From Candidatus Pacearchaeota archaeon (lineage in GTDB: Archaea > Nanobdellota > Nanobdellia > Pacearchaeales > GW2011-AR1), in contig JAGVXD010000019.1 in assembly GCA_018303945.1 (NCBI GenBank), forward strand, positions 2,975-66,974: a stretch of DNA of 64,000 nucleotides, read 5' to 3'. Shown piece by piece: positions 3,974 through 60,375 of the stretch (position 1 is its first letter; every line of letters begins with the position of its first letter). The position numbers and the translations under genes were made by a program. A model generated the notes under the pieces. The model did no database searches, was not told the DNA's origin, and saw only the letters and a list, made by a program, of their open reading frames with translations.

Positions 3974-3991
3974 ATTGTTATCTAAAAAATA

Positions 3992-7452: not shown

Positions 7453-7994
7453 GTTTTTTCTATAGAGAGCACTCAGCACTTCATCTGGGAATAAATTCGG
7501 CTTTCCTCCCGCAACTTCTTGCCAGATTAAGCGAGTATAATATTTATCTTTATTCCCGCCTCTCAATGATGCGTGAATTTGATACAAAAAAACGCGACAA
7601 TTACGAACCAGTCAATGAAACGGAGATAATAAAACTTTCAAGAGGAGAAAGATTGGAAAAAAGAATACTGGGATTTATTGATAAAACAAAAAACCTTCGC
7701 TTAATTCAGGTTAAAAGATATGGCTGGATTGAGCCGCACGAAAATCTAAACAGCTATGTTGATTTATATATTCATCATTATAAAAACGGCCAGCTTTATT
7801 CAAACGATGATAAGCCAAGAGAAATAAATGGATATTTTTCAGGAGCAGTCTATAAAACAAAATCTGGGATTTCTCTACCTATTGTAAATTTGAGATATCT
7901 CTACGAAATAAAAAAAGAGAGATTTGAAAAAAAGATGGGAGAAACTGATGCTTTTGATTTGGCAATGATAACTATATACTTGAAATATGGATAA
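7413..7994 (+). CDS. hypothetical protein
   Basis: 193-aa ORF. Its stop lies inside an R1 hairpin repeat. Confidence 0.5.
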   Translation: MCSYREIGYTTTLGFFYREHSALHLGINSAFLPQLLARLSEYNIYLYSRLSMMREFDTKKRDNYEPVNETEIIKLSRGERLEKRILGFIDKTKNLRLIQVKRYGWIEPHENLNSYVDLYIHHYKNGQLYSNDDKPREINGYFSGAVYKTKSGISLPIVNLRYLYEIKKERFEKKMGETDAFDLAMITIYLKYG

Positions 7995-8082
7995 CTGCAT
8001 TGCTTAGATGACAACGAGTGGCAGTTATTCAGACAGAGAACTGCGTACAAATATGTAATCTAACCTGCGCAGTTCTCTATAT
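7990..8082. repeat. hairpin repeat, family R1 copy 2 (two consecutive hairpins)
   Basis: GATAACTGC..GCAGTTAT followed by CAGAGAACTGCG..CGCAGTTCTCT. Homologous to 60284-60375. Confidence 0.7.
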
Positions 8083-8131
8083 CAAAACTCAAAAAACTAA
8101 CGTTTATTAATCCTGTGTTCATATCCCTAAT

Positions 8132-10228: not shown

Positions 10229-10381
10229 GATCCCGTAGCTCAGTTGGTTAGAGCGCTGCTCTGATATCAAAAAGTCCTTGCGTTTACCGCACCCTAAAGG
10301 GCGCGGTTTATTTGGGACTTTTGGCAGAAAAAATCAATGTCGGAAAGGCAGAGGTCCCAAGTTCAATTCTTGGCGGGATCA
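10229..10381 (+). tRNA. tRNA-Ile(GAU) with a 79-nt intron (10267..10345) at the canonical 37/38 position
   Basis: Hand-folded. Acceptor GATCCCG/CGGGATC, D arm GCTC/GAGC, anticodon stem CTGCT/GGCAG, loop CTGATA|A, T arm CCAAG-TTCAATT-CTTGG. Confidence 0.8.
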
Positions 10382-10887: not shown

Positions 10888-10959
10888 GCGGCTTTAGTAT
10901 ATCGGTTAGTATGTGACCTTCCCAAGGTCGAGAGCGGGGTTCGATTCCCCGAAGCCGCA
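10888..10959 (+). tRNA. tRNA-Gly(CCC)
   Basis: Acceptor GCGGCTT/AAGCCGC, anticodon loop TTCCCAA, T arm CGGGG-TTCGATT-CCCCG. Confidence 0.9.
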
Positions 10960-12521: not shown

Positions 12522-12647
12522 GGCTCCGTAGCTCAGCCCGGTTAGAGTACTGGACTCTTACATTTAAAGGCGTAAGTCTTAAATGGCTCATGATTGATAT
12601 ACAATCGAGAAATCCAGGTGTCGCGGGTTCAAATCCCGTCGGGGCCA
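12522..12647 (+). tRNA. tRNA-Lys(CUU) with a 51-nt intron (12561..12611)
   Basis: Acceptor GGCTCCG/CGGGGCC, anticodon stem CTGGA/TCCAG, loop CTCTTA|A, T arm GCGGG-TTCAAAT-CCCGT. Confidence 0.8.
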
Positions 12648-14285: not shown

Positions 14286-14326
14286 CACTTGATTATAAAG
14301 TTCGCTTTTCATTTTATCTCCTAAAC

Positions 14327-14758
14327 TCACGGCTTTTGCGCGGCGGCTACGCCGCTAATGCAAACTACCCGACCATACTCGCCCGAGTCAGCCAAATCAT
14401 CGTCGTTCGAGTTGATATTGAGGTTCCAGTTGAGGAACAACCTCGAAAGTCCTGAATTTCTAGTCCATAATTGTCTGTTCTTACCAGGAACATCAGTATC
14501 ATACACTTTTGTTGGCAAACCTGTTTTAGCATCCATTTCAGAGGAATTAATGTAAGATCCATGTTTGCTGTTAAGAATGGGTGCTTCAAAATAAAGAGGA
14601 GTATCAAGAAGTTCTTTCTTTAAATTAAATGCTAGTTTATTAGGCGCCTTATTTTCTTTCCTCAATGAAAGTCCATATAAAGGTAGCACATAAGCAGTAT
14701 TTTCAAGGCTTGCCAGCGCCTCTAAATTGATCATAGAAATCCAAAGCGAGCCAACCAT
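14327..14758 (-). CDS. unknown protein B1 (paralog of 17156..17557)
   Basis: Shares LENTAYVLPLYGLSLRKENKAPNKLAFNLKKELL and NRQLWTRNSGLSRL...GRVVCISG.AAAQKP with B2. The ATG at 14758 is preferred. Confidence 0.55.
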   Translation of the reverse strand: MVGSLWISMINLEALASLENTAYVLPLYGLSLRKENKAPNKLAFNLKKELLDTPLYFEAPILNSKHGSYINSSEMDAKTGLPTKVYDTDVPGKNRQLWTRNSGLSRLFLNWNLNINSNDDDLADSGEYGRVVCISGVAAAQKP

Positions 14759-15230
14759 TAGGATTTCCTTTCGATCTCCATACAAGTGAAGAATCTTCAT
14801 ATTGATTTTGCAAAGGCAATTTATTTCCTTTTAAGATAGCTTCTAACTCTGCTTGTGTTGCTGTTCTAATATTCTTAGGTTGCAATATTTGATTTGCAAC
14901 TATAACTGCGTATGGGTTAGAGCCCTCTACAACTTTCTTTGTAGAATTCCACTTAAGTATCTTAAGAGCGCTTGCGTCATTATAATCTACTTTTACTACC
15001 CGCTCATATTCTTTCAAGAAATCTTTTCCAAAATCTCCTGATAGAAAGAAAGCTGAGGCGAACGGAATCTGGGGAATTGGAGTATTTGAAGCAGGGGATA
15101 CATCAGGATTTGTTCCAGCATTCTTATCAGGTTCTGGTTCTTTATTTCCTTTACCTTTATCTGGCTTCTCTTGACTTACTCTTTGAGCATAGCGTTCTGC
15201 CCATTGTTTATACAGATCAAAGTTGCTCAT
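14703..15230 (-). CDS. unknown protein A1 (paralog of 17529..18017)
   Basis: Shares MSNFDLYKQWAERYAQRVSQ, a P/K/G-rich linker and a conserved C-terminal domain with A2. Confidence 0.65.
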   Translation of the reverse strand: MSNFDLYKQWAERYAQRVSQEKPDKGKGNKEPEPDKNAGTNPDVSPASNTPIPQIPFASAFFLSGDFGKDFLKEYERVVKVDYNDASALKILKWNSTKKVVEGSNPYAVIVANQILQPKNIRTATQAELEAILKGNKLPLQNQYEDSSLVWRSKGNPNGWLALDFYDQFRGAGKP

Positions 15231-15368: not shown

Positions 15369-17159
15369 TCATGCTGTAGCTCCTGCAATTTTAGGGCTTT
15401 GCTTATAATAACTTGAAACAAAGGAAACCATGCTTCGTGAAAGATCCTCATCGCCTTTTACGTTAATAACTGGAACTCCCAGATCCTTTAGATACGTTGA
15501 AAACGCTGTGTCGCCACCAATTTGAATATGTGCATAATCAGCAGTTCGTATCTTTTGTTCAAAACTAGTTTTTTGAGAGCCATTCATGCTAAATTCTCCA
15601 TCTGAAATAGACAAGACTAAAGCACTATCTTCGATTTCTTTCTCCAAGCCCTCGCTATCAAAGGTAGTAGTTCCTGAGGGTTTTGTTAGCAAGGATTTGG
15701 CGACTAATTCTGATTTTCCACGCACTGCTGATTCTCCTGAGAATCCCAGAACGCTACTTTCAATGTAAGGAGCTACGCCTTGGCGTTCAAAGAAGTTATC
15801 AATGCCAAAATATCCTTTTAATGCGAAATGATATTTACTATTATCTCCCCATGGGATATATGAAGTATTTCCTACTTCTTTTCCATTATCTGAATTAAGA
15901 GCCATACTTCCTGATCTATCCATAAGTGCAAGCTTGAAGTTAGGAAACTGGTGAGGATGTTTCTTGTAAGCAACAGGGTGTTCAACATGATGTTTAGTTG
16001 TCTTTAAACCCATCTCTCCATCAGATTTGAATCCTACTCCTCTGAACTTAAACTTACGTTCATCTTCCTTAACAAATCGTCTCCCATAGCGTACAAGAGG
16101 CATTGCTTGACTTGCTGAGTAATGAGTAGTTTCTACAGGAATTTCCTTAGAAATTTTCTTATAGAGGTCATATAGTTGCTCTTGTAAATCTCTATGTGCA
16201 AGCGGTGCTTCCCCTCCCTGATATCTGCCAAAGGCAATTTCCTGCCTATTAGAAGGCATTTTCATTTCTCGATCAAAAGGATTCTGCTCCTCTGAATTCT
16301 CATCGCCCTCACTTGATCCAAACATTCTTTGTTGCGGTGGCTGATCTTCCAGCAATTTACCTAGATGAACAGCAAAAGAATATCCGAGATTGCTCCATGT
16401 TTTCGCTCTTTGGCGTATATCTGTAGGATCAAACAGCTTTTGGAATCCAGATTTTTCATGTAACTTAAATATCTTCTCTTCTTGGGTAACTGTTCTCATT
16501 TCTCCGAGAAATTGTCCGACTGCTTCTTTTACTTCTGGTTTATCACCAAAGAATCTCTTAAGAAGACTATAGTCTGCTGCTCTTCCTGCAAGCATAAGGT
16601 TAACTTTGACAAAAGCCTCGTAAAAAAGATTATATTTTCCATCCTGCCCATTCACAAGCCCGTGGTTATTCCAAAAAAGAGTTTGGCCTGCAAAATCGGT
16701 ATGTCTCCTGCAATTAATATTATCAAGTACATCTTCAAAAGCATTAGTAACATACTGCTCAAGACCGTTTTTGCCTATCTCTTGCAGTCCTCGTGTTACT
16801 TTGTCCTTGATTCTCTCGTGAGTTTCTAAATCATAGGGGCAACCATATCGTTCTCCTACCTTATTTTCTCTGTGTCCTGCTTCATGGTCGAGTACATCCT
16901 GTCCCGTTTTAAGCAAGGGATCTTTAATCCCTCTAAGAGATGCAAAACGCTTGCTTTCCTCATCAGGCACTAAATCCAAATCTCTTCCATAAGAAAGACT
17001 AATTTCTTTCCAATCTGTTGTAATATGGCCTGCAAAAGTATTTCCAGCAACTTCATCAACATTTAATCTAATTCCAATTAATCCGATCTTGTTTTTTTGC
17101 TGTTCAAGTGCTTGTTTGATGTTTTGAAGTTCGCTTTTCATTTTATCTCCTAAACTCAC
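15369..17159 (-). CDS. vWA-domain protein with N-terminal HExxH metallopeptidase-like motif (MoxR partner; CobT-like architecture)
   Basis: 596 aa with HEAGH at about residue 84 and the MIDAS motif DRSGS (ALMDRSGSM) in the C-terminal third. GTG start. Confidence 0.8.
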   Translation of the reverse strand: MSLGDKMKSELQNIKQALEQQKNKIGLIGIRLNVDEVAGNTFAGHITTDWKEISLSYGRDLDLVPDEESKRFASLRGIKDPLLKTGQDVLDHEAGHRENKVGERYGCPYDLETHERIKDKVTRGLQEIGKNGLEQYVTNAFEDVLDNINCRRHTDFAGQTLFWNNHGLVNGQDGKYNLFYEAFVKVNLMLAGRAADYSLLKRFFGDKPEVKEAVGQFLGEMRTVTQEEKIFKLHEKSGFQKLFDPTDIRQRAKTWSNLGYSFAVHLGKLLEDQPPQQRMFGSSEGDENSEEQNPFDREMKMPSNRQEIAFGRYQGGEAPLAHRDLQEQLYDLYKKISKEIPVETTHYSASQAMPLVRYGRRFVKEDERKFKFRGVGFKSDGEMGLKTTKHHVEHPVAYKKHPHQFPNFKLALMDRSGSMALNSDNGKEVGNTSYIPWGDNSKYHFALKGYFGIDNFFERQGVAPYIESSVLGFSGESAVRGKSELVAKSLLTKPSGTTTFDSEGLEKEIEDSALVLSISDGEFSMNGSQKTSFEQKIRTADYAHIQIGGDTAFSTYLKDLGVPVINVKGDEDLSRSMVSFVSSYYKQSPKIAGATA

Positions 17160-17557
17160 GGCTTTTGCGCGGCGGCTGCGCCGCTAATGCAAACTACCCG
17201 ACCAGCCTCATACGAGCCGGCGAGAACCCCGCCCCTAGCGAAGAGATCCAAGTCCCTGATGAGGTACAACCTCGAAAGTCCTGAATTTCTAGTCCATAAT
17301 TGTCTGTTCCCTGGAACAGCATTCTCATAGACTTTCTTCGGTAGTCCAGTATTGGTATCAACTTCTCCAGCTTTAACATATAATCCGTCTTTACTCATAA
17401 GTATATGAGCTTCAAAATAAAGAGGAGTATAAAGAAGTTCTTTCTTTAAATTAAATGCTAGTTTATTAGGCGCCTTATTTTCTTTCCTCAATGAAAGTCC
17501 ATATAAAGGTAGCACATAAGCAGTATTTTCAAGCGAGCCAACTATTAGGATCTGCAT
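17156..17557 (-). CDS. unknown protein B2
   Basis: Paralog of B1. It overlaps the A2 3' end by 29 nt and the vWA gene start by 4 nt. Confidence 0.55.
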   Translation of the reverse strand: MQILIVGSLENTAYVLPLYGLSLRKENKAPNKLAFNLKKELLYTPLYFEAHILMSKDGLYVKAGEVDTNTGLPKKVYENAVPGNRQLWTRNSGLSRLYLIRDLDLFARGGVLAGSYEAGRVVCISGAAAAQKP

Positions 17558-18017
17558 TAGATCTCCACACGAGAGAAGATTCTACATAATGATTTCCTTT
17601 GATAGGTAATGTATTTGCCTGTGCAATTTTCTCTAACTCTGCTTGTGTAGCAGTTCTGATTCCACTTTTCTCAAGAATCATGTTAGAAAGAACAACTGCA
17701 AAAGGATTTGAGCCCGTTACTTTTTGATTGGCATCATCCCAATTAAGAACTTGCAAAGCTGAGGCATTATTATAATCTTTCTTAACTCTTGCGTTATATT
17801 CCTTTAGAAAGTCTTTTCCAAATTGTCCTTTCAAAAATGAAGCACTCCCAAAAGTATGGGGAACAACAAGAGGAGTGGTTGCATTTGAATCAGGTTGACT
17901 TCCAGCATCTGGCTTAGAATCTGCTTTTTTTCCTTTTCCACCTTTGTCTGGTTGTCCTTGACTTACTCTTTGAGCATAGCGTTCTGCCCATTGCTTGTAA
18001 AGGTCGAAATTACTCAT
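17529..18017 (-). CDS. unknown protein A2
   Basis: Paralog of A1. It starts 2 nt after the MoxR stop. Confidence 0.65.
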   Translation of the reverse strand: MSNFDLYKQWAERYAQRVSQGQPDKGGKGKKADSKPDAGSQPDSNATTPLVVPHTFGSASFLKGQFGKDFLKEYNARVKKDYNNASALQVLNWDDANQKVTGSNPFAVVLSNMILEKSGIRTATQAELEKIAQANTLPIKGNHYVESSLVWRSNADPNSWLA

Positions 18018-21257: not shown

Positions 21258-21380
21258 ATATAATAAGATTACTCAAATATTGCGTTCTTCCGCTACATAC
21301 GATATTTACAGAAGCCGCTCACCAAACTGAAATTAAAAAATAAGTGGCGATTTGGGCTAATTTCTGTCTTTTATGAGAAA

Positions 21381-21526
21381 AGTTGCCGAAGGCAAAAGAA
21401 ATTACCTCTTAATCTGCTGTTGCTTGACCTGAAGCGAAGCGGAAGGCACGAGTGGAGCAAGAAGCGACCTCGTGAGTGAAAGTTTTGTTCTCAGCCGATT
21501 TCGTAGCGTAGTTGCTGAAGAGAAAC
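21381..21526. repeat. structured element, upstream arm U1 (divergent type)
   Basis: Contains CCTCTTAATCTGCTGTT, GCGAAGC, the hairpin CACGAG..CTCGTG, and GTTCTCAGCCGATTTCG.AGCGTAGTTGCTGAAGAGAAA. Confidence 0.75.
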
Positions 21527-21540
21527 ATATTTAATATTAG
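21527..21540 (+). promoter_or_regulatory. TATA-like box about 20-30 nt upstream of the cassette ORF1 ATG
   Basis: ATATTTAATATTAG. The same spacing is seen for ORF2 and ORF3 and for the peptide gene on the - strand. Confidence 0.35.
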
Positions 21541-21556
21541 GCAAATTATCAATATT

Positions 21557-21922
21557 ATGAAATCCAAGATAAAATCTTTAAGCAGGAATGAGCAACGGAC
21601 AATTATTGTTTTTGAAATGAACAATCAAATTATAAAAATTATTGAAAAAACATTTAAGAAATTAAAGTCCGATTTTGAATTGTCAGATTATAAGAAAAAA
21701 TATGGAGATAAAATTATTGACAATTCTTGGGAGTTAAATAAGAAAGATGAGGACTTTAATTTTAGTCTAGTTGCGAAAAAAGATTTTGTGAAATTGAAAC
21801 TAAAAGCAAGCTTGGATTTCGTAAACAAGTTTTTGAAAATTCTGGAAAATGATACAGAATTTTCCGAATTATTGCCTAAGATTAAAGCAAAATTAGAAAG
21901 GCGAAAATTCAAATTTCTCTAA
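21557..21922 (+). CDS. cassette ORF1, Lys-rich hypothetical protein (121 aa from ATG 21557)
   Basis: ORF enclosed by the U1 and D1 arms. Its last codons and stop pair with U1. Confidence 0.5.
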   Translation: MKSKIKSLSRNEQRTIIVFEMNNQIIKIIEKTFKKLKSDFELSDYKKKYGDKIIDNSWELNKKDEDFNFSLVAKKDFVKLKLKASLDFVNKFLKILENDTEFSELLPKIKAKLERRKFKFL

Positions 21923-22260
21923 AGCAATTTCGTTAAAGCTTTGTTAGACAAAGTTGCATAGCAATTTTGTGAGTTTTCTCTGTGTGGCTTTAACGAAGCG
22001 AGAAATAACAAGGCTGAGAATTGCTCACAGCCAAAAGGACAGGAAGAGGGGAAACTAAAACTCTATGTCGGAAATTGGGGGGAAGGTGAGCAACCGCAGG
22101 CAAAACTTTCATTTTGGGCAACGTCGCGATTAAGGAAAGTTTTTTCTTCCTCGAGGAGCGAAGCGACGAAGAAGTTTTCAAAAATCCGTCATCAAGGGCG
22201 AAGCTCCATAAATTCAAATGTTTTAGAGAGGGAACTTTTATTTTCATTTATTAACTTTAA
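21918..22260. repeat. structured element, downstream arm D1
   Basis: AGCAATTTCGTTAAAGC...GCTTTAACGAAGCGAGAAATAACAAGGCTGAGAATTGC followed by a GCGAAGC-containing tail. Confidence 0.75.
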
Positions 22261-22311: not shown

Positions 22312-22965
22312 ATGAGATTATATCAAAGAATTATTGCGGGTGGATTAGTAGTTGCAGGTTTAGCTGGACTGCTTGGTTGCGATAATGATAGACCGAGAAC
22401 AGAAGAGCCAAAACCCAAATCTGTTGCTGCTGTAGAACTTTATCCGCATGGAAATGCAGGTGTAGCAATTGGAGATATAACAGGCGATAAATTGCCTGAT
22501 CTTGTTATTGCTGCTGAAAAGATTATAGAAAGAGAAGCAGTAGTTTATGTTTCTGACAATAGAGGAAATTATCAATTTGGAAATCCAACATTAATTGCTT
22601 CTGTTCCCCTTTATGGAGGTGGAAGAGAACTAATTTTTGGTGGAGGTTCTCCTGGTCTTGATGTTGCTTTAGGAGACTTTGATAATGACGGAGACTTAGA
22701 TATTTTAGTTGCAGCTGAGAAGCTTGATAAAAAAGAAGCGGCAATATTCAGAATAGAAAATCTAGGAAATAATACTTATTCAAATCCAAAACACGTTGGA
22801 GATGTTCCATTGGCTACTGCCGGAGGATTGAGTATAGCGACACAAGATATTAACCAAGATGGAAGAACAGACATATTAGTTTCTGCCGAGCATCCAAGCA
22901 AAAGAGAAGCAAATATGTATTTTTTTGAAAATGAAGGCAATAATTCTTTTGAAGCTGTAAAGTAA
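22312..22965 (+). CDS. FG-GAP/VCBS-repeat lipoprotein
   Basis: Lipobox-like LLGC, and three repeats of the form GD(I/F)xxDGxxDI(L)V.AE(K/H). Confidence 0.75.
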   Translation: MRLYQRIIAGGLVVAGLAGLLGCDNDRPRTEEPKPKSVAAVELYPHGNAGVAIGDITGDKLPDLVIAAEKIIEREAVVYVSDNRGNYQFGNPTLIASVPLYGGGRELIFGGGSPGLDVALGDFDNDGDLDILVAAEKLDKKEAAIFRIENLGNNTYSNPKHVGDVPLATAGGLSIATQDINQDGRTDILVSAEHPSKREANMYFFENEGNNSFEAVK

Positions 22966-22995
22966 ATTTCTTTTTCGCAGAAAAAGACTATCTGT
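22963..22995. repeat. 33-bp direct repeat DR-left (TAAATTTCTTTTTCGCAGAAAAAGACTATCTGT)
   Basis: Matches 25150-25182 at 32 of 33 positions. It contains the hairpin TCTTTTTC/GAAAAAGA. Confidence 0.85.
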
Positions 22996-25118: not shown

Positions 25119-25149
25119 TTTATTGTTCTGAATGCGAAAAGTGCCCAAA

Positions 25150-25182
25150 TAAATTTCTTTTTCGAAGAAAAAGACTATCTGT
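25150..25182. repeat. 33-bp direct repeat DR-right
   Basis: TAAATTTCTTTTTCGAAGAAAAAGACTATCTGT, with one mismatch to 22963-22995. Confidence 0.85.
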
Positions 25183-25410: not shown

Positions 25411-26220
25411 ATGGATAAAGAAGAGGCATTAAGGAAGCTTGGGCAAGAGATTGAAATACGCAATTTTTCACGGAAAACTCTAAAGGGCTATGTTCATTCA
25501 GTAAGTAAGTTTTGCGATTATCTAAAAGACAAACCTTTTAGTCAGGAAGAGGTTAAGAATTATGTCCAAATGCAGATAAAAAAGCATAATCCCTCTTCTG
25601 TAGCTCACGAGATCTTTGCTATTCAATTTTTCTTTGATAAAGTCCTAGGCAGAAAAATTTATGTTCCAAGGCCAAAAAGAAACAAAACACTCCCAGATAT
25701 ATTAACAAGAGATGAAGCATTGGCATTGGTAAACGCGCCTGTGAACATAAAGCACAGATTGATACTAAAGCTACTCTATGGGTGTGGGCTAAGAGTCTCA
25801 GAGGTAATAAGCCTAAATAAAGACGATTTGAACTTCAATGAAAAGCTAATGCATGTCAGATTAGCAAAGGGTAAAAAAGATAGATTTGTCAGGATTCCAG
25901 ATTCAGTTACAAAAGAATTGGAAAATTACTGCAATTTATTAAATGAAGATGTCCTCTTCCCTTCAAACAGGGGCGGAAGACTGACAACTGCAACAATTCA
26001 GGCAATTGTTGAACAATCTGCTAAAAAGGCAGGTATCACAAAAGAGGTTTATCCTCATCTTTTAAGACATTCGTTTGCAACTCACTTACTAGAATCCGGC
26101 ACCGATTTACGAATAATCCAAAAATTGCTGGGACACTCAGATATAAAAACAACCCAGATTTACACTCGAATATCTCAAGCATCAATCAAAAATATAAAAA
26201 GTCCGCTTGATTCATCATAA
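25411..26220 (+). CDS. tyrosine recombinase, XerA/XerCD-like
   Basis: 269 aa with an N-terminal SAM-like domain, GCGLRVSEV, HLLRHSFATHLL, LGHSDIKTTQIYT, and the catalytic R, HxxR, H and Y. No IntI-type insertion is evident. Confidence 0.9.
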   Translation: MDKEEALRKLGQEIEIRNFSRKTLKGYVHSVSKFCDYLKDKPFSQEEVKNYVQMQIKKHNPSSVAHEIFAIQFFFDKVLGRKIYVPRPKRNKTLPDILTRDEALALVNAPVNIKHRLILKLLYGCGLRVSEVISLNKDDLNFNEKLMHVRLAKGKKDRFVRIPDSVTKELENYCNLLNEDVLFPSNRGGRLTTATIQAIVEQSAKKAGITKEVYPHLLRHSFATHLLESGTDLRIIQKLLGHSDIKTTQIYTRISQASIKNIKSPLDSS

Positions 26221-26221
26221 A

Positions 26222-28477
26222 ATGGCAACCGTAAAGGATTATATCCCTCTGGGAGATGTAAAAATAACGACTGAAAAGGAAGTTAGGCCAAAGCCGACCG
26301 TAGCAGAGCTCACCACAATAGAGTCTCCTGGAAAGCCGGTTCCTGCCTCTAATTTAGTGAAAAAAAGAACACTGGGTAAAAAAGCACCTGAAAAAGAAAA
26401 CAAGATAATTAAAGATTCTATATTGATAATTACAGAAAAACCACAGGCGGCGCAAAAAATAGCGCAGGCACTTGGCACCCCAATTAAACGCTTAGAAAAT
26501 GGAGTTCCTTATTACGAGCTTACAAGAAATGGAAAAATAATAACTGTAGCTTCCGCAGTAGGCCATTTATTCAATCTTACTTACAGCGCTGGACAGAAAG
26601 GCTGGCCAATTTTCAATCTAGAATGGCAACCGTCATATTCAAGAAAAACTGCGGCTTTCACAAAAAAATATTACGAAGTGCTTAAAAGACTCGTGCGTTC
26701 GGCTGAAACATTCATAGTTGCAACAGACTTTGATGTTGAAGGTGAAGTTATAGGATGGAACGTTGTGAGATTTATTGGTAAAAGAACTAATGCCCTGCGC
26801 ATGAAGTTTTCAACTCTCACAAATGATGAATTGGAAAATTCTTATGAAAATCCCATGTCGGAGCTTAATTGGGGCAACGCATATGCAGGAGAGACGCGTC
26901 ATTTTCTTGACTGGCTTTATGGTATCAATCTTTCCCGCGCTCTTATGTCAGCAATAAAGCAGACTGGCTCTTTTAAGGTTCTTTCAATAGGCAGAGTGCA
27001 GGGTCCGGCATTGAAAATAATAGCTGACAGAGAAAAAGAAATATCTGCGTTTAAGCCTGAGCCTTATTGGCAAATATTTGCGCTTGCAGAAAGCATTGAG
27101 TTCAAGCATCCAAAGGATATATTTGACAAATCGCTTCTTGAGCAGTTTAAAGACATAAAGGAAGCAAATGCCGAAACTGAAAAAAACAATGAGAATATCT
27201 CCCCGCCCGTTCCTTTTGACTTGACAACCTTGCAAAGAGAGGCTTATCGCCTTTTCAAGATGAATCCTTCTGAAACTTTAGCCACTACCCAAAAACTATA
27301 TCTTGAGGGAATTATATCCTATCCGCGAACTTCTTCTCAGAAGATTCCTGAAGCAATTCAGCCTAAAAAAATCTTGAAAGCTCTGGCAAAACACTTTCCA
27401 CAGGTAAAAGAAGCCACTAGAGAAAAACCTGTAGAAGGCAAAAAATCAGATCCTGCACATCCATCAATATATCCTACTGGAGAATATAGAAAATTAGTCG
27501 AAAAAGAAGAAAAAATATACAACCTTATAGTCCAGAGATTTATAGCTGCATTTTGTAAAGATGCTGTGGCGGCCAGAAAACACATCATCCTTACAGCGAA
27601 GAACGGCATTACTTTCACAGCAAACGCAACAACTCTGTCAGAAAAAGGATGGATGAAAGTTTATCCTTCATTTATTGAGGAAAGCTCTCTTCCTGACCTT
27701 AATGGTCTGGTTAAAATAGATGAAATTAAAAGTATTGAGAAAGAAACTCAGCCGCCTAATAGATACACTCCCGCCTCGCTCGTAGCAATTTTGGAAAAGA
27801 AAAACCTGGGAACAAAAGCAACACGTTCATCTATTATAGATACATTATTTAATCGTGGCTACTTAGACGGTACAAGCATCAAGGCAACACCTCTCGGAAT
27901 GCAGCTTATTTCTGCTCTTGAAAAATATTCTCCTATTATTATAGATGAAAACCTCACGAGAGAACTGGAAGAAGAATTGGAAAAAATTCAGGAGTCTAAA
28001 AAAGAATTCATGGAACAAGAGCAGAAAGTAATAAAGCATGCGCGGGAAATTATTACTAAAATTTCTGAAGAATTCAAGCAGAAAGAGAAAGAAATAGGAG
28101 AAGAGCTTCTGCAAGGACTTCAGACTCTCAGGCAGGAACAGAATGAATCAAATACTCTCCTTTCTTGTCCAACATGCAAAAAAGGCAACCTTAGGATACT
28201 CTATTCGAAGAAAACAAAGCGATATTTTGTAGCATGTTCTGCTTATCCAGATTGCAAGCAAACATATTCACTTCCCCCAAATGCTTTAATAAAAAAATCG
28301 GATAAACTATGCGAAGCAGACCAGTTCCCTAAACTTCTCGCAATTAGAAAAGGCAAGCGACCCTGGGAGTTCTGCTTCAATCCTAACTGCCCAATAGAAA
28401 AGAAAAAAAGAGAAGAATGGCAGGCACGCAAGGCATCTAATGAAAACCCTAACTCAAATCTGCTGGAAGAAGATTAA
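26222..28477 (+). CDS. topA: type IA DNA topoisomerase (archaeal Topo I/III-like) with C-terminal zinc ribbons
   Basis: Toprim motifs (ITEKPQAA, DFDVEGE), the active-site SYPRTSSQ, and C-terminal CPTC..CSAYPDC. Confidence 0.9.
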   Translation: MATVKDYIPLGDVKITTEKEVRPKPTVAELTTIESPGKPVPASNLVKKRTLGKKAPEKENKIIKDSILIITEKPQAAQKIAQALGTPIKRLENGVPYYELTRNGKIITVASAVGHLFNLTYSAGQKGWPIFNLEWQPSYSRKTAAFTKKYYEVLKRLVRSAETFIVATDFDVEGEVIGWNVVRFIGKRTNALRMKFSTLTNDELENSYENPMSELNWGNAYAGETRHFLDWLYGINLSRALMSAIKQTGSFKVLSIGRVQGPALKIIADREKEISAFKPEPYWQIFALAESIEFKHPKDIFDKSLLEQFKDIKEANAETEKNNENISPPVPFDLTTLQREAYRLFKMNPSETLATTQKLYLEGIISYPRTSSQKIPEAIQPKKILKALAKHFPQVKEATREKPVEGKKSDPAHPSIYPTGEYRKLVEKEEKIYNLIVQRFIAAFCKDAVAARKHIILTAKNGITFTANATTLSEKGWMKVYPSFIEESSLPDLNGLVKIDEIKSIEKETQPPNRYTPASLVAILEKKNLGTKATRSSIIDTLFNRGYLDGTSIKATPLGMQLISALEKYSPIIIDENLTRELEEELEKIQESKKEFMEQEQKVIKHAREIITKISEEFKQKEKEIGEELLQGLQTLRQEQNESNTLLSCPTCKKGNLRILYSKKTKRYFVACSAYPDCKQTYSLPPNALIKKSDKLCEADQFPKLLAIRKGKRPWEFCFNPNCPIEKKKREEWQARKASNENPNSNLLEED

Positions 28478-30626: not shown

Positions 30627-31334
30627 TTATTGCCTGGCAAACTTCCACAAAAGCTCGAAATACTTTCTGTACCCTTCGCTTATTTCCTTGTTTTTTATAA
30701 CAATTGCTAATGGATTTTCCTTGCTCCAAAGTACAAGAGCAACTTTATCCCCATATATATTAACTGCAAGCGGGGAATGGTATTTTTCAGGAAGGAATCG
30801 CACTTCAGAATAAGGAATATTTGGGAGAGTGCGCTGCTTATTAAAAATGATGCGCGCCCTTATCTTACTTTTCGCTCTTCTCTTGTCAAAACACTTGAAG
30901 TAAAATCTTAAGATATCATAAGCAAGAGGGGAAGCTCCTAAAACAAGAATCTCCTTTTTAGTAGAAATCTGGTCCTCAAATACGGTTTTCAATCCATTTC
31001 TGCCTTTATAAAAATTAGTTTCCTCTTTCTCCTTAGTCTTTGTAAAAAGCTCCATCATTCTTGGCAGAGCTTCAGAAACATACTTCTCCTTCTCTCTCAA
31101 CAATTCAACAACTCTCTCCGGACTTACTGCCTGGAAAAGCTTGACATTATTCTCCAGAATATAACCTATTAGCCCTTTTTGTATGAGCATCTCTACAGTA
31201 TCATATACGACTCTTCTGTGTAGCCCTGATTTTCTGGATATTATGCCTGCATGGCTCGGTCCCATTTCAAGCAAGGTCGTATAAACCTTAGCTTCATTTT
31301 CAGTCAAACCCGCTTCTTTTAGCTGTTCCTTCAT
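30627..31334 (-). CDS. TrmB-family transcriptional regulator
   Basis: N-terminal LTENEAKVYTTLLEMGPSHAGIISRKSGLHRRVVYDTVEMLIQKGL. Confidence 0.8.
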   Translation of the reverse strand: MKEQLKEAGLTENEAKVYTTLLEMGPSHAGIISRKSGLHRRVVYDTVEMLIQKGLIGYILENNVKLFQAVSPERVVELLREKEKYVSEALPRMMELFTKTKEKEETNFYKGRNGLKTVFEDQISTKKEILVLGASPLAYDILRFYFKCFDKRRAKSKIRARIIFNKQRTLPNIPYSEVRFLPEKYHSPLAVNIYGDKVALVLWSKENPLAIVIKNKEISEGYRKYFELLWKFARQ

Positions 31335-36257: not shown

Positions 36258-36427
36258 TGAATATAGCTAAATCTTACCAGTATAAATAGTTTTCTAAGAG
36301 GCAGTATCTATTCCCAACGAGTAGTATCTGCTCTCTCTATAAGACTTTCAATCGTTCAGACTAAACGAACTTTCAGCACAATATATTTATTAAGATGGAA
36401 AGCCAGAAATAATTAAAGGAGAAATTA

Positions 36428-36953: not shown

Positions 36954-37010
36954 TTTCTTCTGTTTGTCAGTATAGAATGAAAATTACAGCGTCTATCGGT
37001 TCAAATTAAG

Positions 37011-37146
37011 AGAACATTTTAGGATAAAATGAATAAGCTGCCGTTTAGCAGTGATTAAGTGACCCTTTAGGGCAAGAGTGGGCTTCGAAAGACCCTCTTG
37101 TGTTTAGATTCGTTCTCAGCCGATTTCTCGCGTAATTGCTAAAACT
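37011..37146. repeat. structured element, upstream arm U2
   Basis: GCCGTTTAGCAGTGATTAAG, CCCTTTAGGG, CAAGAGTGGGCTTCGAAAGACCCTCTTG and GTTCTCAGCCGATTTCTCGCGTAATTGCT. Confidence 0.8.
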
Positions 37147-37170
37147 ATTAAGAGGTAACAAATAGAAAGA

Positions 37171-37178
37171 TTTATAAA
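37171..37178 (+). promoter_or_regulatory. TATA-like box (TTTATAAA) 22 nt upstream of the ORF2 ATG
   Basis: Position and composition only. Confidence 0.35.
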
Positions 37179-37199
37179 GAACGAATTTTGTAGATTTTT

Positions 37200-37484
37200 A
37201 TGCAAACAAACAGAGTATACGTGATTCCAGAAGCAAAAGTCGGCGACGAAAGAAAAACTGTCGTGATGAGAAGCCAATTTGGGGCAAGCCTTGCTTTAGG
37301 AATTTCAAAAGATGTAACTGCTGCTTATGAAGTGGAAGCTAGAAATTGTTCTCATCAAGAATTGTATACTGCAGTTACTAAGGTTGTAAAAAGAAGCAAG
37401 ATTACAGAGTTAGAGGCTTCTCTTCAAGAATTTTGCAATGTTTTTAGTATGTCGGTAACAAAATTAGTCCCAACACAAGCATAA
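37200..37484 (+). CDS. cassette ORF2, hypothetical protein (94 aa)
   Basis: ORF enclosed by U2 and D2. No similarity to ORF1 or ORF3 by eye. Confidence 0.55.
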   Translation: MQTNRVYVIPEAKVGDERKTVVMRSQFGASLALGISKDVTAAYEVEARNCSHQELYTAVTKVVKRSKITELEASLQEFCNVFSMSVTKLVPTQA

Positions 37485-37500
37485 TCTTTCTATTATTTTA

Positions 37501-37728
37501 TTCATCAGCAATTTCGTTTAAGCAAGCGATTGTGCGTTAACGAAGTTCGCACCCAGCGGTTAAGCGGAGCAAGAAATAACAAGGCTGAGAATTGCAAGCC
37601 GAAAGGGGCAAGAGTTTACAGGCAATAATTAATTTGTTACTATGAAAACTCTGAAGGGAAAGGGGCTTGTTTGTCTAGGGGATTTGCAACCCGAGTGCAA
37701 CGAGGGCAAAGCAAAAGTTTGGTTAATC
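37501..37728. repeat. structured element, downstream arm D2
   Basis: About 93 nt are identical to D3 (CAGCAATTTCGTTTAAGC...GGCTGAGAATTGCAA). The distal part is conserved and ends in GGTTAATC. Confidence 0.85.
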
Positions 37729-37809
37729 TATCAGGCTAAAAGAACTTTCAAAGGCAATTATTATCTAAAAATTTTTTGAAAGTTACAAAAAATTATGCTT
37801 CTTACAAAA

Positions 37810-37945
37810 AGAACATTATTGGAAATAATGAATAATTTTCCTTTTAGCAGTGATTAGGCGAGTTGCTTGCAACCTCGAGCTAGCCACAAAGGCTCTCGAG
37901 TTACAAAATCTGTGCGAAATCTTTTCCTGAGTGTAATTTCTAAGC
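37810..37945. repeat. orphan upstream-arm variant U2-prime
   Basis: Same 5' motif (AGAACATT..TTTAGCAGTGATTAGG). The central hairpin is replaced by CTCGAG-CTAGCCACAAAGGCT-CTCGAG. Confidence 0.65.
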
Positions 37946-38028
37946 TATCTTTATTTAGTAAGAAGTTATTGGGTGGGAAATATTCACAGGGCGCGAGGTT
38001 TTTTCGTAAGGGGGCTGACTGTTTTCAG

Positions 38029-40039: not shown

Positions 40040-40180
40040 ACTTAATTATGTGTAAACACATATTTAAACATTTCTACTTTTGATTCTGTTAACTTAAGGC
40101 CCCTCATAGGATCTATCTCTTTTATGCAACTCCAGAGGAATCGAGATACCTCAAGAATTTGCAATTCTTGATGACACCCA

Positions 40181-40309
40181 AGAACACAGGGTTCTTGGTG
40201 TTTGCCGTTTACTTGTGATTAAGCGTCCCTTTGGGGCAAGAGCGGGCTTCGAAAGACCCTCTTGTGCTTAGATTCGTTCTCAGCCGATTTCGAGCGTAAT
40301 TGCTGAAAC
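40181..40309. repeat. structured element, upstream arm U3
   Basis: GCCGTTTACTTGTGATTAAG, CCCTTTGGGG, CAAGAGCGGGCTTCGAAAGACCCTCTTG and GTTCTCAGCCGATTTCGAGCGTAATTGCTGAAAC. Confidence 0.85.
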
Positions 40310-40333
40310 TATGGAGAAGTAACAAGAGAAATG

Positions 40334-40341
40334 TTTAAATA
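40334..40341 (+). promoter_or_regulatory. TATA-like box (TTTAAATA) 22 nt upstream of the ORF3 ATG
   Basis: Position and composition only. Confidence 0.35.
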
Positions 40342-40362
40342 TTCCATAAATTATAAGACTAT

Positions 40363-40632
40363 ATGGCTGATAGATTAAAGGTATATGCAATTTATGGGAA
40401 AGGACAAACTAATGAGGCCTCAAAGTCACTTTGTGATTATAGTGTAGGGCATACTGAAGAAGAGGCAGTTGAAAATGCTATAAACTTAAATCCTCGTTTG
40501 AGATTATTACACGATCTAAATGCTACTCAGATTGCCGTTAGAGGATTTAGAATTTCAGCCGAATCATTAGAGCAAGAAGCCAGAAATAATTTTCATGCGG
40601 CAGTTCATCGTGGTCGTGGCACTTGGTACTAA
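40363..40632 (+). CDS. cassette ORF3, hypothetical protein (89 aa)
   Basis: ORF enclosed by U3 and D3. Confidence 0.55.
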   Translation: MADRLKVYAIYGKGQTNEASKSLCDYSVGHTEEEAVENAINLNPRLRLLHDLNATQIAVRGFRISAESLEQEARNNFHAAVHRGRGTWY

Positions 40633-40640
40633 TTTTATTT

Positions 40641-40879
40641 GTTTCAGCAATTTCGTTTAAGCAAGCGATTGTGCGTTAACGAAGTTCGCACCCAGCGGTT
40701 AAGCGGAGCAAGAAATAACAAGGCTGAGAATTGCAACCGAAAGGGAAAGATTTTACGGGCAATAGTTTATTTATTATTATGTAAAATCAGGAGGGAGTGG
40801 GGAAACTCAAAGCATATTAGGGGATAGCAACCCGAATAAAACGAAGTGGAACGAGGGCAAAGAAGAAGTTTGGTTAATC
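40641..40879. repeat. structured element, downstream arm D3
   Basis: It starts with GTTTCAGCAATT, the perfect complement of 40298-40309, contains GGCTGAGAA, the complement of 40277-40285, and ends in GGTTAATC. Confidence 0.85.
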
Positions 40880-40937
40880 CTACGTTTTAACCGAACATTG
40901 TTTGAGCCATACTTTAATCTTAAGGTAAGATGGAATA

Positions 40938-46312: not shown

Positions 46313-46360
46313 CTTGTCAAGAACCAACCACTAAAGTAGGTGGCGTGTTTGGTTCTTGAT
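46313..46360. repeat. hairpin repeat, family R2 copy 1 (TCAAGAACCAA...TTGGTTCTTGA)
   Basis: Lies 70 nt after the valS stop. A near-identical copy is at 49511-49557. Confidence 0.75.
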
Positions 46361-49510: not shown

Positions 49511-49557
49511 CTTGTCAAGAACCACCCACTAAAATAGGTAGCGTGTTTGGTTCTTGA
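49511..49557. repeat. hairpin repeat, family R2 copy 2
   Basis: Lies 10 nt after the prf1 stop. A second hairpin, GACTTCAAAAATGC..GCATTTTTGAAGTC, follows at about 49558-49593. Confidence 0.75.
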
Positions 49558-56001: not shown

Positions 56002-56075
56002 GTCCTCGTAGCTCAGCCGGTAGTAGCACCTGACTGTTAATCAGGGGGTCGGAGGTTCGAGTCCTCCCGAGGACG
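56002..56075 (+). tRNA. tRNA-Asn(GUU)
   Basis: Acceptor GTCCTCG/CGAGGAC, anticodon stem CCTGA/TCAGG, loop CTGTTAA, T arm GGAGG-TTCGAGT-CCTCC. Confidence 0.9.
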
Positions 56076-56403: not shown

Positions 56404-57516
56404 ATGGATAAAATGTGCGAAAAGAAAAAAACGGTGCTTCTAGGCATGTCTGGAGGAGTAGATTCAAGTGTCGCTGCTCTTCTCTTAAAGAAAAAAGGAT
56501 ATAATGTTATAGGAGCATTCCTGAAGATTTATTCTGATACAAAAAACAAATTAACCGGTCAATGTGCCTATCTTGATGAGTTAAAAATGGCTAGAAAAAT
56601 ATCATCTATTCTTAATATTCCACTCATAGTTCTTGATTATGAAAAAGATTACAAAAAGCACGTTCTTAACCCTATGTTTAAATCATATGCTTCAAGCAAA
56701 ACGCCTAATCCCGACATTTCATGCAATGCGATTATAAAGTTCCCATTCCTCTGGAAAGCTGCAAAGAAATACAAAGCAGACTTAATTGCAACTGGACATT
56801 ATGCAAAAATAAAGAAATACAAAAAAATCTGTACATTATTAATGGGAAAAGACAATACTAAAGACCAATCATATTTTCTTGCAGAGCTTGCTCAAAAAGA
56901 CTTGTCACATACCATCTTTCCCATAGGAAATTATACAAAGAAGCAAATAAGAGATATTGCAAGAAGAAATAACTTCCCAAATTGGAATAAGCATGGAACT
57001 GTTGGAATATGCTTCGTAGGACAGCAGAATATGCAGAATTTCTTGAAGCAGAAAATAAAAGAAAAGCCCGGAAAAGTAATAACTCCGACGGGAGATATTA
57101 TAGGCACTCATAAGGGCATTTCTTTTTACACAATAGGCCAAAAAACAGGTGAACACATAGGAATTAATGTGAAAAAGCCAAGAGAATTTGCACAAAAAAG
57201 ATTCTATGTGGGAGAAAAAAGAAGAAATAACCTTCTGGTTGTTGCTCCCGAAGGGCATCCGGCGTTAAAAAGAAGAAAAGTTTTAATTAAAAATCTGCAT
57301 TTAATAAATGCCAAATCCAAAATTCCAGCTCAACTAAAAGCAAGAATCAGACATCTGGGATTTTTCCATCTGGGCAAATTAAAGAAAACTACTAATGGCT
57401 GGTCGTTCACTTTCAATAAACCATTGGAAGCTCTCGCAGAAGGCCAATACATTGTCTTCTACAAAGGAAGGGAAGTCATGGGCTGTGGAGAGATGTCTTT
57501 GACCTATAGGAAATGA
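56404..57516 (+). CDS. mnmA: tRNA-specific 2-thiouridylase MnmA (bacterial/organellar type)
   Basis: PP-loop LGMSGGVDSSVAA and conserved Cys contexts (PNPDISCN, GICF). The stop codon lies inside the left MITE copy. Confidence 0.85.
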   Translation: MDKMCEKKKTVLLGMSGGVDSSVAALLLKKKGYNVIGAFLKIYSDTKNKLTGQCAYLDELKMARKISSILNIPLIVLDYEKDYKKHVLNPMFKSYASSKTPNPDISCNAIIKFPFLWKAAKKYKADLIATGHYAKIKKYKKICTLLMGKDNTKDQSYFLAELAQKDLSHTIFPIGNYTKKQIRDIARRNNFPNWNKHGTVGICFVGQQNMQNFLKQKIKEKPGKVITPTGDIIGTHKGISFYTIGQKTGEHIGINVKKPREFAQKRFYVGEKRRNNLLVVAPEGHPALKRRKVLIKNLHLINAKSKIPAQLKARIRHLGFFHLGKLKKTTNGWSFTFNKPLEALAEGQYIVFYKGREVMGCGEMSLTYRK

Positions 57517-57568
57517 CTTTAATATAGATAATTCTCCATAATCATACTCTCTTCCGTGATTTCCTATA
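57505..57568. mobile_element. 64-bp foldback MITE, left copy (10-bp TIR TATAGGAAAT/ATTTCCTATA)
   Basis: Exact reverse complement of 58947-59010. The terminal TA dinucleotides are consistent with a TA target. Confidence 0.7.
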
Positions 57569-57598
57569 AATGGCAAACAACACCTTTTTATATCTCCA

Positions 57599-58936: not shown

Positions 58937-58946
58937 GTAGATTTTT

Positions 58947-59010
58947 TATAGGAAATCACGGAAGAGAGTATGATTATGGAGAATTATCTATATTAAAGTC
59001 ATTTCCTATA
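58947..59010. mobile_element. 64-bp foldback MITE, right copy (inverted orientation)
   Basis: Perfect reverse complement of 57505-57568. Identity extends 2 nt further on the inner side. Confidence 0.7.
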
Positions 59011-60140: not shown

Positions 60141-60283
60141 TTATCTTTACCTCCTTTCAATTATGTACTAAACAACAAAAAACTAGTATTTATATTTGAC
60201 TGTGGTAAAAAATATGGGTTATTCACATAAGAGTTAAGAAAAGGAAGATACATATGAAATTATGAGAAGTTTGCAATATTATG

Positions 60284-60375
60284 GATAACTAAATTGTTTA
60301 TACCTCGCAGAAGAGCAGTTATCCAGACAGAGAACTGTGTAGGTTATAGCTCACATTGTGTGCAGTTCTCTGTAT
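60284..60375. repeat. hairpin repeat, family R1 copy 3 (two hairpins)
   Basis: GATAACT..AGTTATC followed by CAGAGAACTGTG..TGCAGTTCTCTG. Confidence 0.7.

Follow-up and report, generated by a model that had tools for sequence, protein, structure and literature searches.

A conserved two-arm fold that clamps a promoter-bearing gene module in DPANN archaea

Results

A two-arm element brackets a small open reading frame

The DNA analyzed here, referred to as the window, is a 64,000-nucleotide (nt) stretch of chromosomal DNA from a Candidatus Pacearchaeota archaeon (contig JAGVXD010000019.1, positions 2,975–66,974). Its genes include those for aminoacyl-tRNA synthetases, MCM, eRF1, NAC, ribosomal protein L15e, and intron-containing tRNAs. 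Positions 40203–40896 of the window are occupied by the element that is the subject of this study, designated the 40k element. It consists of an upstream arm (U) and a downstream arm (D) that lie on either side of an open reading frame (ORF) of 89 amino acids, which we refer to as the cargo. An original prediction for this locus, made from the sequence without database searches, described an unclassified structured element with two nested complementary pairs and several local hairpins around the ORF. Direct reading showed that the coordinates, the sequences, both pairs, the hairpins, and the ORF had been quoted correctly. The predicted bounds (40181–40879) were too short, and the conserved 3′ motif reaches ~40896. 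The parts of the element are as follows.

40161–40210 (+), two local hairpins 5′ of the conserved arm: CAAGAATT-TGC-AATTCTTG and a portable hairpin, ACACCCAAGAAC..GTTCTTGGTGT
40203–40312 (+), upstream arm (U)
40215–40226 (+), U arm, 5′ strand of the closing helix, GTGATTAAGCGT
40227–40236 (+), U arm, hairpin H1
40237–40264 (+), U arm, hairpin H2, CAAGAG..CTCTTG
40276–40285 (+), U arm, 5′ strand of helix Pa, GTTCTCAGCC; one G separates Pa from Pb
40287–40291 (+), U arm, 5′ strand of helix Pb, ATTTC
40292–40298 (+), U arm, joiner GAGCGTA from Pb to Pc
40299–40309 (+), U arm, 5′ strand of helix Pc, ATTGCTGAAAC
40334–40341 (+), TATA box TTTAAATA of the internal archaeal promoter, 29 nt upstream of the ATG
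40363–40632 (+), cargo ORF, 89 amino acids, an ORFan
40641–40731 (+), core of the downstream arm (D)
40641–40651 (+), 3′ strand of Pc, GTTTCAGCAAT, which stacks directly on Pd
40652–40707 (+), branched hairpin Pd, followed by the joiner AGCAA
40712–40716 (+), 3′ strand of Pb, GAAAT
40717–40721 (+), joiner AACAA between the 3′ strands of Pb and Pa
40722–40731 (+), 3′ strand of Pa, GGCTGAGAAT
40732–40896 (+), 3′ domain of the D arm, with several hairpins including CC-GAAA-GG, a GGAGGGAGTGGGGAAAC..AGCAACCC block, and at its end the terminal motif ..TTTTAACCGAAC (general form ..TAAMCGAAC)
40870–40881 (+), 3′ domain, 3′ strand of the closing helix, TTGGTTAATCCT

Long-range helices can be read directly around the cargo. 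The inner helix joins AATTGCTGAAAC (40298–40309) to GTTTCAGCAATT (40641–40652) in a perfect 12 base pairs (bp). The outer pair, originally given as TTCTCAGCC (40277–40285) with GGCTGAGAA (40722–40730), is in fact the 10-bp helix Pa (GTTCTCAGCC / GGCTGAGAAT), which is followed by the 5-bp helix Pb (ATTTC / GAAAT). A further helix of 12 bp closes the ends of the element (40215–40226 with 40870–40881). The hairpins at 40161–40210 stand in for the 5′ leader hairpins of other copies, and the hairpin-bearing part of the 3′ domain spans ~130 nt. The loop of the hairpin CAA-GCGA-TTG, listed in the original prediction among the local hairpins of the arms, reads GCCA or GCTA in other copies. A 62-amino-acid ORF (40639–40827) lies inside the D arm; the arms were rejected as coding DNA, as their alignments contain non-triplet insertions and deletions together with compensatory pair changes.

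The arms form one covarying domain

The two arms are halves of a single structured domain of roughly 350–450 nt. From the outside in, the domain consists of the end-closing helix, Pa, Pb, and a three-way junction with Pc and Pd, connected by the invariant joiners AGCGUA, AGCRA-GAAAU, and AACAA. Covariation was evaluated in a curated core alignment of 18 non-redundant elements, with partners slid by 1–3 columns and 500 shuffles serving as controls. Standard pairs fill 93.9% of the core cells, as opposed to 33–48% with slid partners. Changes on both sides of a pair are found in 13 pairs (51 cells), compared with 8.2 pairs and 14.8 cells in the shuffles, none of which scored as high (0/500). The compensatory pairs fall in the cassette-closing helix Pc (7 of 11), H2 (4 of 6), and Pd (2 of 9). 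Pa and Pb do not vary at all across the aligned elements, and for that reason neither helix has covariation support. In the closing helix, 90.4% of the cells are paired (26–46% when slid) and four pairs are compensatory; in one element, L036, both strands carry corresponding insertions of 2 nt. An outer helix ("P1"; GCCGUUUACUU with AAGUGGAACGAGGGC) that RNAalifold proposed from three sequences was inconsistent over 11 type A copies and is not relied on.

Pairing continues toward the cargo. The extensions of Pc differ from one cargo to the next yet match across each of them (CCGAU/AUCGG, CCAAAG/CUUUGG, UCGAG/CUCGA, and UGAAAC/GUUUCA). In the L038 variant, Pb (GUUUC/GAAAC) and Pc (AAUCGCA/UGCGAUU) are altered on both sides together, and the arms of a 3-kb variant pair (GAGAGGGCAC / GUGCCCUCUC) over 2.7 kb of cargo. 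The segment that precedes the TATA box pairs with the segment that follows the stop codon in 16/16 elements, with z scores of −1.1 to −8.1 that lie below −2 in 15 of them; the spliced arms alone fold with a z score of −3.1 relative to shuffles. That the ORF forms the loop of long-range helices, as originally proposed, is borne out by pairing beyond both types of control, and the check for compensatory changes recommended at the time also came out positive, with the cargo varying between the arms.

These results bear on whether the element is an ordinary dispersed repeat of the miniature inverted-repeat transposable element type, whose complementarity would represent terminal inverted repeats and whose structure would be unselected. 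The multi-copy, intergenic occurrence of the element and its degenerate copies are what such a repeat would show. Nevertheless, the explanation is highly improbable given the compensatory changes in four helices, the shuffle result, and the collapse of pairing in slid controls. Conservation, moreover, peaks at the internal junction instead of the termini, and the family spans several DPANN lineages.

The sense strand folds

G-U and U-G combinations occupy 55 cells of the alignment and A-C and C-A combinations 15, an excess that identifies the sense strand as the folding strand. The predicted folding energy of the 695-nt plus strand is −175.8 kcal/mol and that of the minus strand −139 kcal/mol; the minimum-energy fold of the plus strand retains Pa, Pb, and Pc around the ORF. 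The G-U excess, the energy difference between the strands, and the multi-junction architecture together indicate that what folds is a single strand with sense polarity, which would most simply be RNA. The branched architecture favors RNA over single-stranded DNA of the sense strand. The original prediction had leaned toward a role at the level of DNA, and it is on this point that the same three observations lead elsewhere.

Cargo is obligatory, interchangeable, and equipped with a promoter

The Pc loop is occupied in all ~25 elements. At least 328 nt separate the U joiner from the D core, and the smallest cargo slice measures 251 nt; the search patterns would equally have caught empty copies. 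In 16/18 elements the cargo is a single sense-strand ORF of 65–156 amino acids. A TATA box (TTTAWAWA) starts 29 nt before the ATG in 10/16 sense-oriented elements as scored and 24–30 nt before it in the others; by eye, L064 also has a spacing of 29 nt and is the eleventh. The box that the original prediction had placed between the U arm and the ATG is thus a genuine archaeal TATA element, mostly at 29 nt. This spacing is the geometry of leaderless archaeal genes, and the content of the loop can be described as a self-contained expression unit, with a putative B recognition element/TATA promoter and at least one gene. In the 40k element, the internal promoter would yield a leaderless mRNA. The remaining two of the 18 elements (L032 and L048) contain inverted cargo, TATA box included, and the box there abuts the downstream side of Pc.

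Sequence conservation ends just past the TATA box and restarts at the stop codon. Pairing reaches inward as far as the TATA box at one end and the stop codon at the other, so that the cargo is clamped. Cargo genes are unrelated among elements and include ORFans, a GNAT acetyltransferase, an FcoT-type thioesterase, and several small membrane proteins. The larger variants hold VapBC along with other pairs of small genes and regulators of the TrmB family; one such cargo, of 2.7 kb, combines VapBC, a second pair, and TrmB. The only match of the 89-amino-acid cargo protein of the 40k element among 5.8 billion proteins is itself, annotated as Candidatus Pacearchaeota archaeon, and the protein belongs to no Pfam or PHROG family.

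A 7-kb array at L038 (minus strand, ~750–8100 in reversed coordinates) contains four related units, two of which are large variants with VapBC, a second pair of small genes, and a regulator of the TrmB family among their cargo. Elements in L073 and in the window likewise have TrmB-family genes nearby (30627–31334 in the window).

In another explanation, the arms act as elaborate paired untranslated regions of a cis-acting mRNA scaffold that closes, processes, stabilizes, or regulates the mRNA, by analogy with the processing stems around archaeal rRNAs. The element would then be a reusable expression context and not mobile. Covarying long-range helices over 0.3–2.7 kb that abut the promoter and the stop codon, together with cargo that is always there, agree with such a scaffold, and the D arm is necessarily the 3′ region of any transcript from the internal promoter. 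We nonetheless consider the scaffold unlikely. A strong internal promoter would give rise to a leaderless mRNA that does not contain the U arm, and therefore the translated RNA could not clamp in cis. In the two elements with inverted cargo and TATA box, the sense RNA would be antisense to the gene, and Pc has no bulge-helix-bulge motif. Unrelated genes, furthermore, would hardly need the same 400-nt core. By a lenient global measure the arms are 82–93% alike, whereas neighboring host proteins are 39–68% identical; lenient gap scoring inflates the global figures, with unrelated cargo already at ~75%, and they serve for qualitative use only.

Further copies in the window

Two additional full copies (36992–37790 and 21283–22186) and two degenerate relatives (37795–38010 and, on the minus strand, 46880–46300) are present in the window. 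We designate elements that resemble the 40k and 37k copies type A and those that resemble the 21k copy type B; the two types have a common core and differ in their outer domains.

36992–37790 (+), second full type A copy: U 36992–37146; TATA box 37171–37178; cargo ORF 37200–37484, 94 amino acids, no homologue family; D 37499–37745, after which lies a junction hairpin, ACTTTCAAA..TTTGAAAGT, with a T6 run
21283–22186 (+), type B copy: 5′ leader and junction hairpin 21283–21357; U 21358–21520; TATA-like TTTAATAT 21530–21537, 27 nt before the ATG; cargo ORF 21557–21922, 121 amino acids; D 21923–22186
37795–38010 (+), upstream arm of a variant class, diverged and bearing the G-rich motif GGGCGCGAGGTTTTTTCGTAAGGGGGC
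36348–36370 (+), isolated type A 3′-terminal motif (TCAATCGTTCAGACTAAACGAAC) at the start of a hot spot that spans 36.3–40.9 kb
46880–46300 (−), diverged relative with a type B-like 5′ leader that matches 21295–21340

The arms of the 37k copy (37039–37161 and 37490–37606) are 89% and 91% identical to those of the 40k element, and the copy at 21.4–22.2 kb is more diverged. The U-arm block GTTCTCAGCCGATTTC occurs three times in the window (0.56 expected by chance) and the D-arm block AACAAGGCTGAGAATTGC three times (0.14 expected). Recurrence of the architecture around unrelated ORFs, which the original prediction had noted for both copies, holds within the window and extends to other genomes. 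The 37k copy contains an extra helix between Pc and the cargo (AATAGAAAGATT / AATCTTTCTATT; AAUAGAAAGAUU / AAUCUUUCUAUU) that reaches the TATA box on its 5′ side and starts at the stop codon on its 3′ side; this extra helix is present in many copies.

A fourth, degenerate upstream arm was matched at 37795–37935, within the diverged arm listed above. A ParE/antitoxin pair follows it on the opposite strand, and no clear downstream arm was found for it. In the relative at 46880–46300, the leader is followed by the G-rich motif GGGGCACGCGCCGTTTTTTCGTTAGGGGGC common to the 37795–38010 arm, then by a ..GAAACGAAC motif and a CAAGAACC hairpin. The shared G-rich motif points to what may be a further variant class of the same superfamily.

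The portable hairpin (..CAAGAACC..loop..GGTTCTTG..) lies at 40183–40210 (+), 5′ of the 40k arm. This CAAGAAC hairpin is also found inside the joiner between Pb and Pa in two elements of other genomes (L032 and L069). Two 47-nt copies in the window (46313–46359 and 49511–49557) are 94% identical, and each follows another gene.

The family is wide but patchy in DPANN archaea

The U-arm pattern TTCTCAGCCGATTTC-N1-4-GCGTA retrieved 17 genome contigs, 16 of which are Pacearchaeota, Woesearchaeota, Nanoarchaeota, or unclassified archaeal metagenome-assembled genomes. An 18-mer from the D arm retrieved 39 metagenome contigs; profile hidden Markov models of the arms confirmed 11, and the remainder were chance matches. 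The non-redundant set comprises 18 complete elements plus many partial or variant ones. Elements range in size from ~0.7 to 3.5 kb, with a U arm of ~110–200 nt and a D arm of ~240 nt. A third, more diverged variant class bears G-rich motifs. These searches show that arm-bearing elements are distributed widely but patchily in DPANN archaea. The arms are absent from the viral, phage, and plasmid collections searched: five patterns in IMG/VR gave chance matches or none, and a blastn search with the D arm found nothing among plasmids and phages. No copy of the exact D-core 23-mer was found in GTDB genomes, a collection that evidently does not include the window's own species.

One metagenome contig (Ga0209749_1004625, L029) contains 14 near-matches to the 18-mer (0–3 mismatches) at ~2860–4850 of its reverse complement. 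Most read GATAAGGCTGAGAATTGC and are spaced mostly by 141 nt; they are part of a tandem repeat unrelated to the element, whose resemblance to the 18-mer is coincidental.

A further explanation is a stand-alone non-coding RNA gene, possibly for a ribozyme or a protein-binding RNA that serves the cell in its own right, whose Pc loop tolerates insertions so that passenger genes accumulate there. An invariant core surrounded by covarying peripheral helices is typical of functional RNAs, the type B copy is syntenic in three genomes, and small hairpin modules have been inserted at various permissive places. Such a gene is a quite unlikely account all the same. None of the ~25 elements is free of cargo. 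Several paralogous and degenerate copies occur per genome, in arrays; absence from sampled relatives indicates that the RNA would not be a housekeeping one.

Elements reside in hot spots, with different cargos at a syntenic site

Units often follow one another head to tail, and the hot spots they form contain many toxin-antitoxin modules. The hot spot at 36.3–40.9 kb of the window contains two copies along with PBECR2/DUF2283, ParE/antitoxin, and RHH/PIN modules and a transposase (insertion sequence, IS) fragment. Between units lie the 3′ motif, a short hairpin (ACUUUCA..UGAAAGU) whose A/T-rich loop resembles a weak TATA box, and the leader hairpins of the next unit; toxin-antitoxin pairs are also found there. 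Near-identical arms surround different cargo both within one genome and at a syntenic type B site. At that site in L060 and L062, the type B copy lies upstream of a gene pair that encodes a tyrosine recombinase and topoisomerase IA, with the recombinase gene directly downstream of the element; in the window, 3.2 kb are inserted between the copy and the pair. The three genomes carry three different cargos at this site, and their recombinase and topoisomerase proteins are 39–68% identical to those of the window.

The only tyrosine recombinase in the window (25411–26220) is a 269-amino-acid Phage_integrase protein. Its homologues abut elements in L060 and L062. Integrases number only two among 121 neighboring ORFs elsewhere; the families that recur among those ORFs are TrmB (4), family B DNA polymerase (3), PIN (3), and MazE (3). 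The suggestion that a cassette system lies behind the element survives in part. Organization resembling that of cassettes, in toxin-antitoxin hot spots, is evident, but the recombinase link on which the original prediction had drawn is weak.

A recombinase encoded elsewhere, for instance a Xer-like enzyme, could in principle act on the element as a DNA-level recombination structure, that is, a single-stranded fold or cruciform that forms a giant site similar to those of attC or invertons. Inverted repeats flank a promoter-gene module that exists in both orientations, the cargo spectrum is typical of chromosomal integron cassettes, a recombinase gene lies close to the type B copies, and Pa and Pb are invariant in sequence, as protein-binding sites would be. 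We regard a DNA site as quite unlikely, however. The predominance of G-U over A-C and the difference of 37 kcal/mol imply that only one strand folds well, and known recombination sites offer no parallel to the three-way junctions, the multi-hairpin 3′ domain of 130 nt, or pairing over as much as 2.7 kb. There is no GTTRRRY core, and it is the cargo that the variable helices span, where an attC-type hairpin would span the boundary between units. Insertion, moreover, occurs in the middle of the palindrome instead of between two full core sites, and recombinases are rare among the neighbors.

The motif AACAUCGCGAUUAAGAGAAGU around some type B copies was considered as a flanking direct repeat or att site. 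It was rejected because it marks the 5′ start of each unit and is missing after terminal elements.

Several other repeats and some tRNA genes were observed in the window. A 36-nt direct repeat (22960–22995 and 25147–25182; 94% identical), which contains a palindrome (TTTCTTTTTCG..GAAAAAGA), lies on both sides of a 2.2-kb segment with a ThiF-like gene just upstream of the recombinase and topoisomerase IA genes (25411–28477); the segment resembles an element that has integrated at a Xer/dif-like site. Between a tRNA methyltransferase gene and ftsZ, a perfect 66-nt inverted repeat (57505–57570 and 58945–59010) encloses 1.37 kb with two small ORFs and a gene for a nitroreductase. Direct repeats of ~0.9 kb (14293–15230 and 17122–18017; 74–84% identical) lie ~2.8 kb apart; they hold small minus-strand ORFs that match no Pfam family and are probably paralogous gene pairs. 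A 62-nt repeat that holds a hairpin (GGATAACTGC..GCAGTTATCC) occurs three times (960–1021, 7986–8047, and 60280–60341). Two tRNA genes contain long introns (10229–10381, 153 nt; 12522–12647, 126 nt), and two more tRNA genes lie at 10888–10959 and 56002–56075.

Comparison with known systems

At the gathering threshold, Rfam 15 identified only four tRNAs in the window. With a relaxed threshold (E ≤ 10), three window regions and seven loci gave unrelated chance matches only, although the cargo insertion could hide a split match. There was no Rfam 15 match to OLE, GOLLD, ROOL, HEARO, raiA, RNase P, signal recognition particle RNA, hammerhead, or twister. A family that explained both arms would have told against the original prediction; none does, and its description of the element as unclassified, matching neither attC, group I or II introns, ribozymes, nor large non-coding RNAs, stands against Rfam 15. 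Literature searches, which included literal motif sequences, found no description of the element. By the generic test for structured RNA, the element shows compensatory pairs and folds on one strand. We could not place the family in any known class.

Integron cassettes resemble the element in several respects. Both are short, non-autonomous units that combine variable cargo with a conserved structured element and occur in arrays or hot spots, and in both the cargo is rich in toxin-antitoxin modules, acetyltransferases, small membrane proteins, and ORFans. An attC site, however, is a single imperfect hairpin of 55–141 nt located 3′ of a usually promoterless ORF, with a GTTRRRY core and an adjacent IntI/attI/Pc platform. 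In the present elements, ~350–450 nt are split between both sides of the ORF and pair across the cargo, and each cassette has its own promoter. GTTRRRY and RYYYAAC cores were not found at element boundaries. The study of archaeal integrons by Ghaly et al. (2022; PMC9668308) covers canonical attC sites only. A hairpin of the attC type that joins the D arm of a unit to the U arm of the following unit was rejected, as the variable helices match across the cargo and Pc of L038 (AAUCGCA/UGCGAUU) is unlike Pc of its neighbors. Invertons likewise have inverted repeats that abut a promoter-containing segment, and both orientations are found among family members; the present elements differ in that there is no adjacent invertase, no element was seen in both orientations, and the repeats lie within a larger covarying fold.

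Group I and group II introns share with the element a large, conserved, covarying fold and a protein gene looped out from one helix. A separate promoter may drive their ORF, which some group I introns carry in either orientation. Their cargo is a homing endonuclease or a reverse transcriptase, whereas unrelated accessory genes are found here. A group I intron was rejected on the basis of no Rfam match, no P3–P7 pseudoknot, a helix order unlike P1–P9, and no exons; element flanks are intergenic or other array units and not a host gene. A group II intron was rejected with no Rfam match, no domain V, and no reverse transcriptase domain in the cargo. The order of the arms is also opposite to that of a group II intron, with the short arm upstream and the long arm downstream.

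The processing stems of archaeal 16S and 23S rRNAs, which are cleaved at bulge-helix-bulge motifs and give circular intermediates, are likewise long-range helices around an insert of 0.3–3 kb. They differ from the present elements, which enclose a protein gene together with its internal promoter and in which a complex conserved core takes the place of a simple stem. Pc was rejected as a bulge-helix-bulge substrate: it is a perfect 12 bp in the 40k element, and L038 and L039 show at most one 3-nt bulge with 6-bp spacing, as judged by eye only, where such substrates have two 3-nt bulges with a 4-bp helix between them. Phage morons are self-contained modules of promoter and gene inserted between other functions, but they have no conserved structured bracket, and the present elements are absent from the phage genomes searched. 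OLE, GOLLD, ROOL, HEARO (omega RNA), and raiA are comparable in size, number of helices, invariant core, a function that is not obvious, and sometimes a link to mobile DNA; they are bacterial or phage-borne and contain no internal protein gene. Retrons and diversity-generating retroelements were considered, and no reverse transcriptase family was among the 25 listed for the 121 neighbors or in the scanned window ORFs. For IS200/IS605 elements, no TnpA or TnpB was nearby, and transposase signals were limited to one ISL3 transposase and one DDE_3 fragment.

Discussion

The current studies show that a conserved, covarying, strand-specific fold made of two arms clamps a gene module that bears its own promoter, and that the cargo in this clamp is obligatory and interchangeable. 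We tentatively favor a model in which the element is a non-autonomous, RNA-structured carrier of gene cassettes; the RNA clamp would be the recognized unit, and the arms would provide homology for cargo exchange. The model is favored because arms are conserved next to diverged host proteins, the cargo resembles that of integrons, and different cargos occupy a syntenic site. Such a carrier would be similar to integron cassettes in its cargo and to introns with a looped-out ORF in its build.

According to this model, a weak TATA-like box upstream of the arm would permit read-through of the cargo and thereby generate a full-length RNA, in which the arms would clamp together and the cargo would form a passive loop. 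Its internal AUG would be unusable by the leaderless route, so the full-length form would be non-coding. Protein would be made instead from the shorter transcript of the internal promoter, whose 3′ region is the D arm. Machinery encoded elsewhere would recognize the folded clamp and its invariant core as the unit for propagation or exchange of the cassette. With 100–250 nt of near-identical arm on each side, an incoming copy could also swap its cargo into a resident copy through homologous recombination. Truncated and degenerate copies, clustering with toxin-antitoxin modules and an IS fragment, and inverted cargo are hints of exchange or mobility.

Several observations weigh against the carrier model. 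Among the 121 neighboring ORFs, no reverse transcriptase, transposase, or recombinase is consistently near the elements. No mobility event was seen, whether as an empty site, a target duplication, a flanking direct repeat, or a circular junction. The 23 contigs that carry each of the window ORFs of 89 and 94 amino acids collapse to near-identical neighborhoods and are thus uninformative on polymorphism, and no element is present in 95 kb of relatives (neighborhoods of PurF homologues, 49–55% protein identity), where synteny is lost. All there is of an upstream promoter is a hairpin loop with a TATA-like stretch, read-through of the 37k copy could stop at a T5 run directly before its ATG, and a transcript that spans both arms is so far a prediction from sequence. 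That Pa and Pb never vary might alternatively be due to a sequence-specific protein or DNA site.

It is also possible, though rather unlikely on present evidence, that the element represents a new class of large RNA, similar in size to known ribozymes, in which the invariant three-way-junction core is catalytic or specifically recognized by protein and actively mobilizes or exchanges the gene in its loop. If the core is indeed catalytic or recognized, the element would be an RNA-based counterpart of integron cassettes, so far confined to DPANN archaea.

DPANN archaea have tiny genomes, depend on hosts, and possess accessory genomes full of small uncharacterized proteins. To our knowledge, large structured RNA classes in archaea are few. 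Should the element prove to be nothing but a scaffold for expression or insulation, it would still change the annotation of small ORFs in DPANN genomes. As a carrier of cassettes, it would constitute both a new architecture for the packaging of accessory genes and a new class of large structured RNA in archaea.

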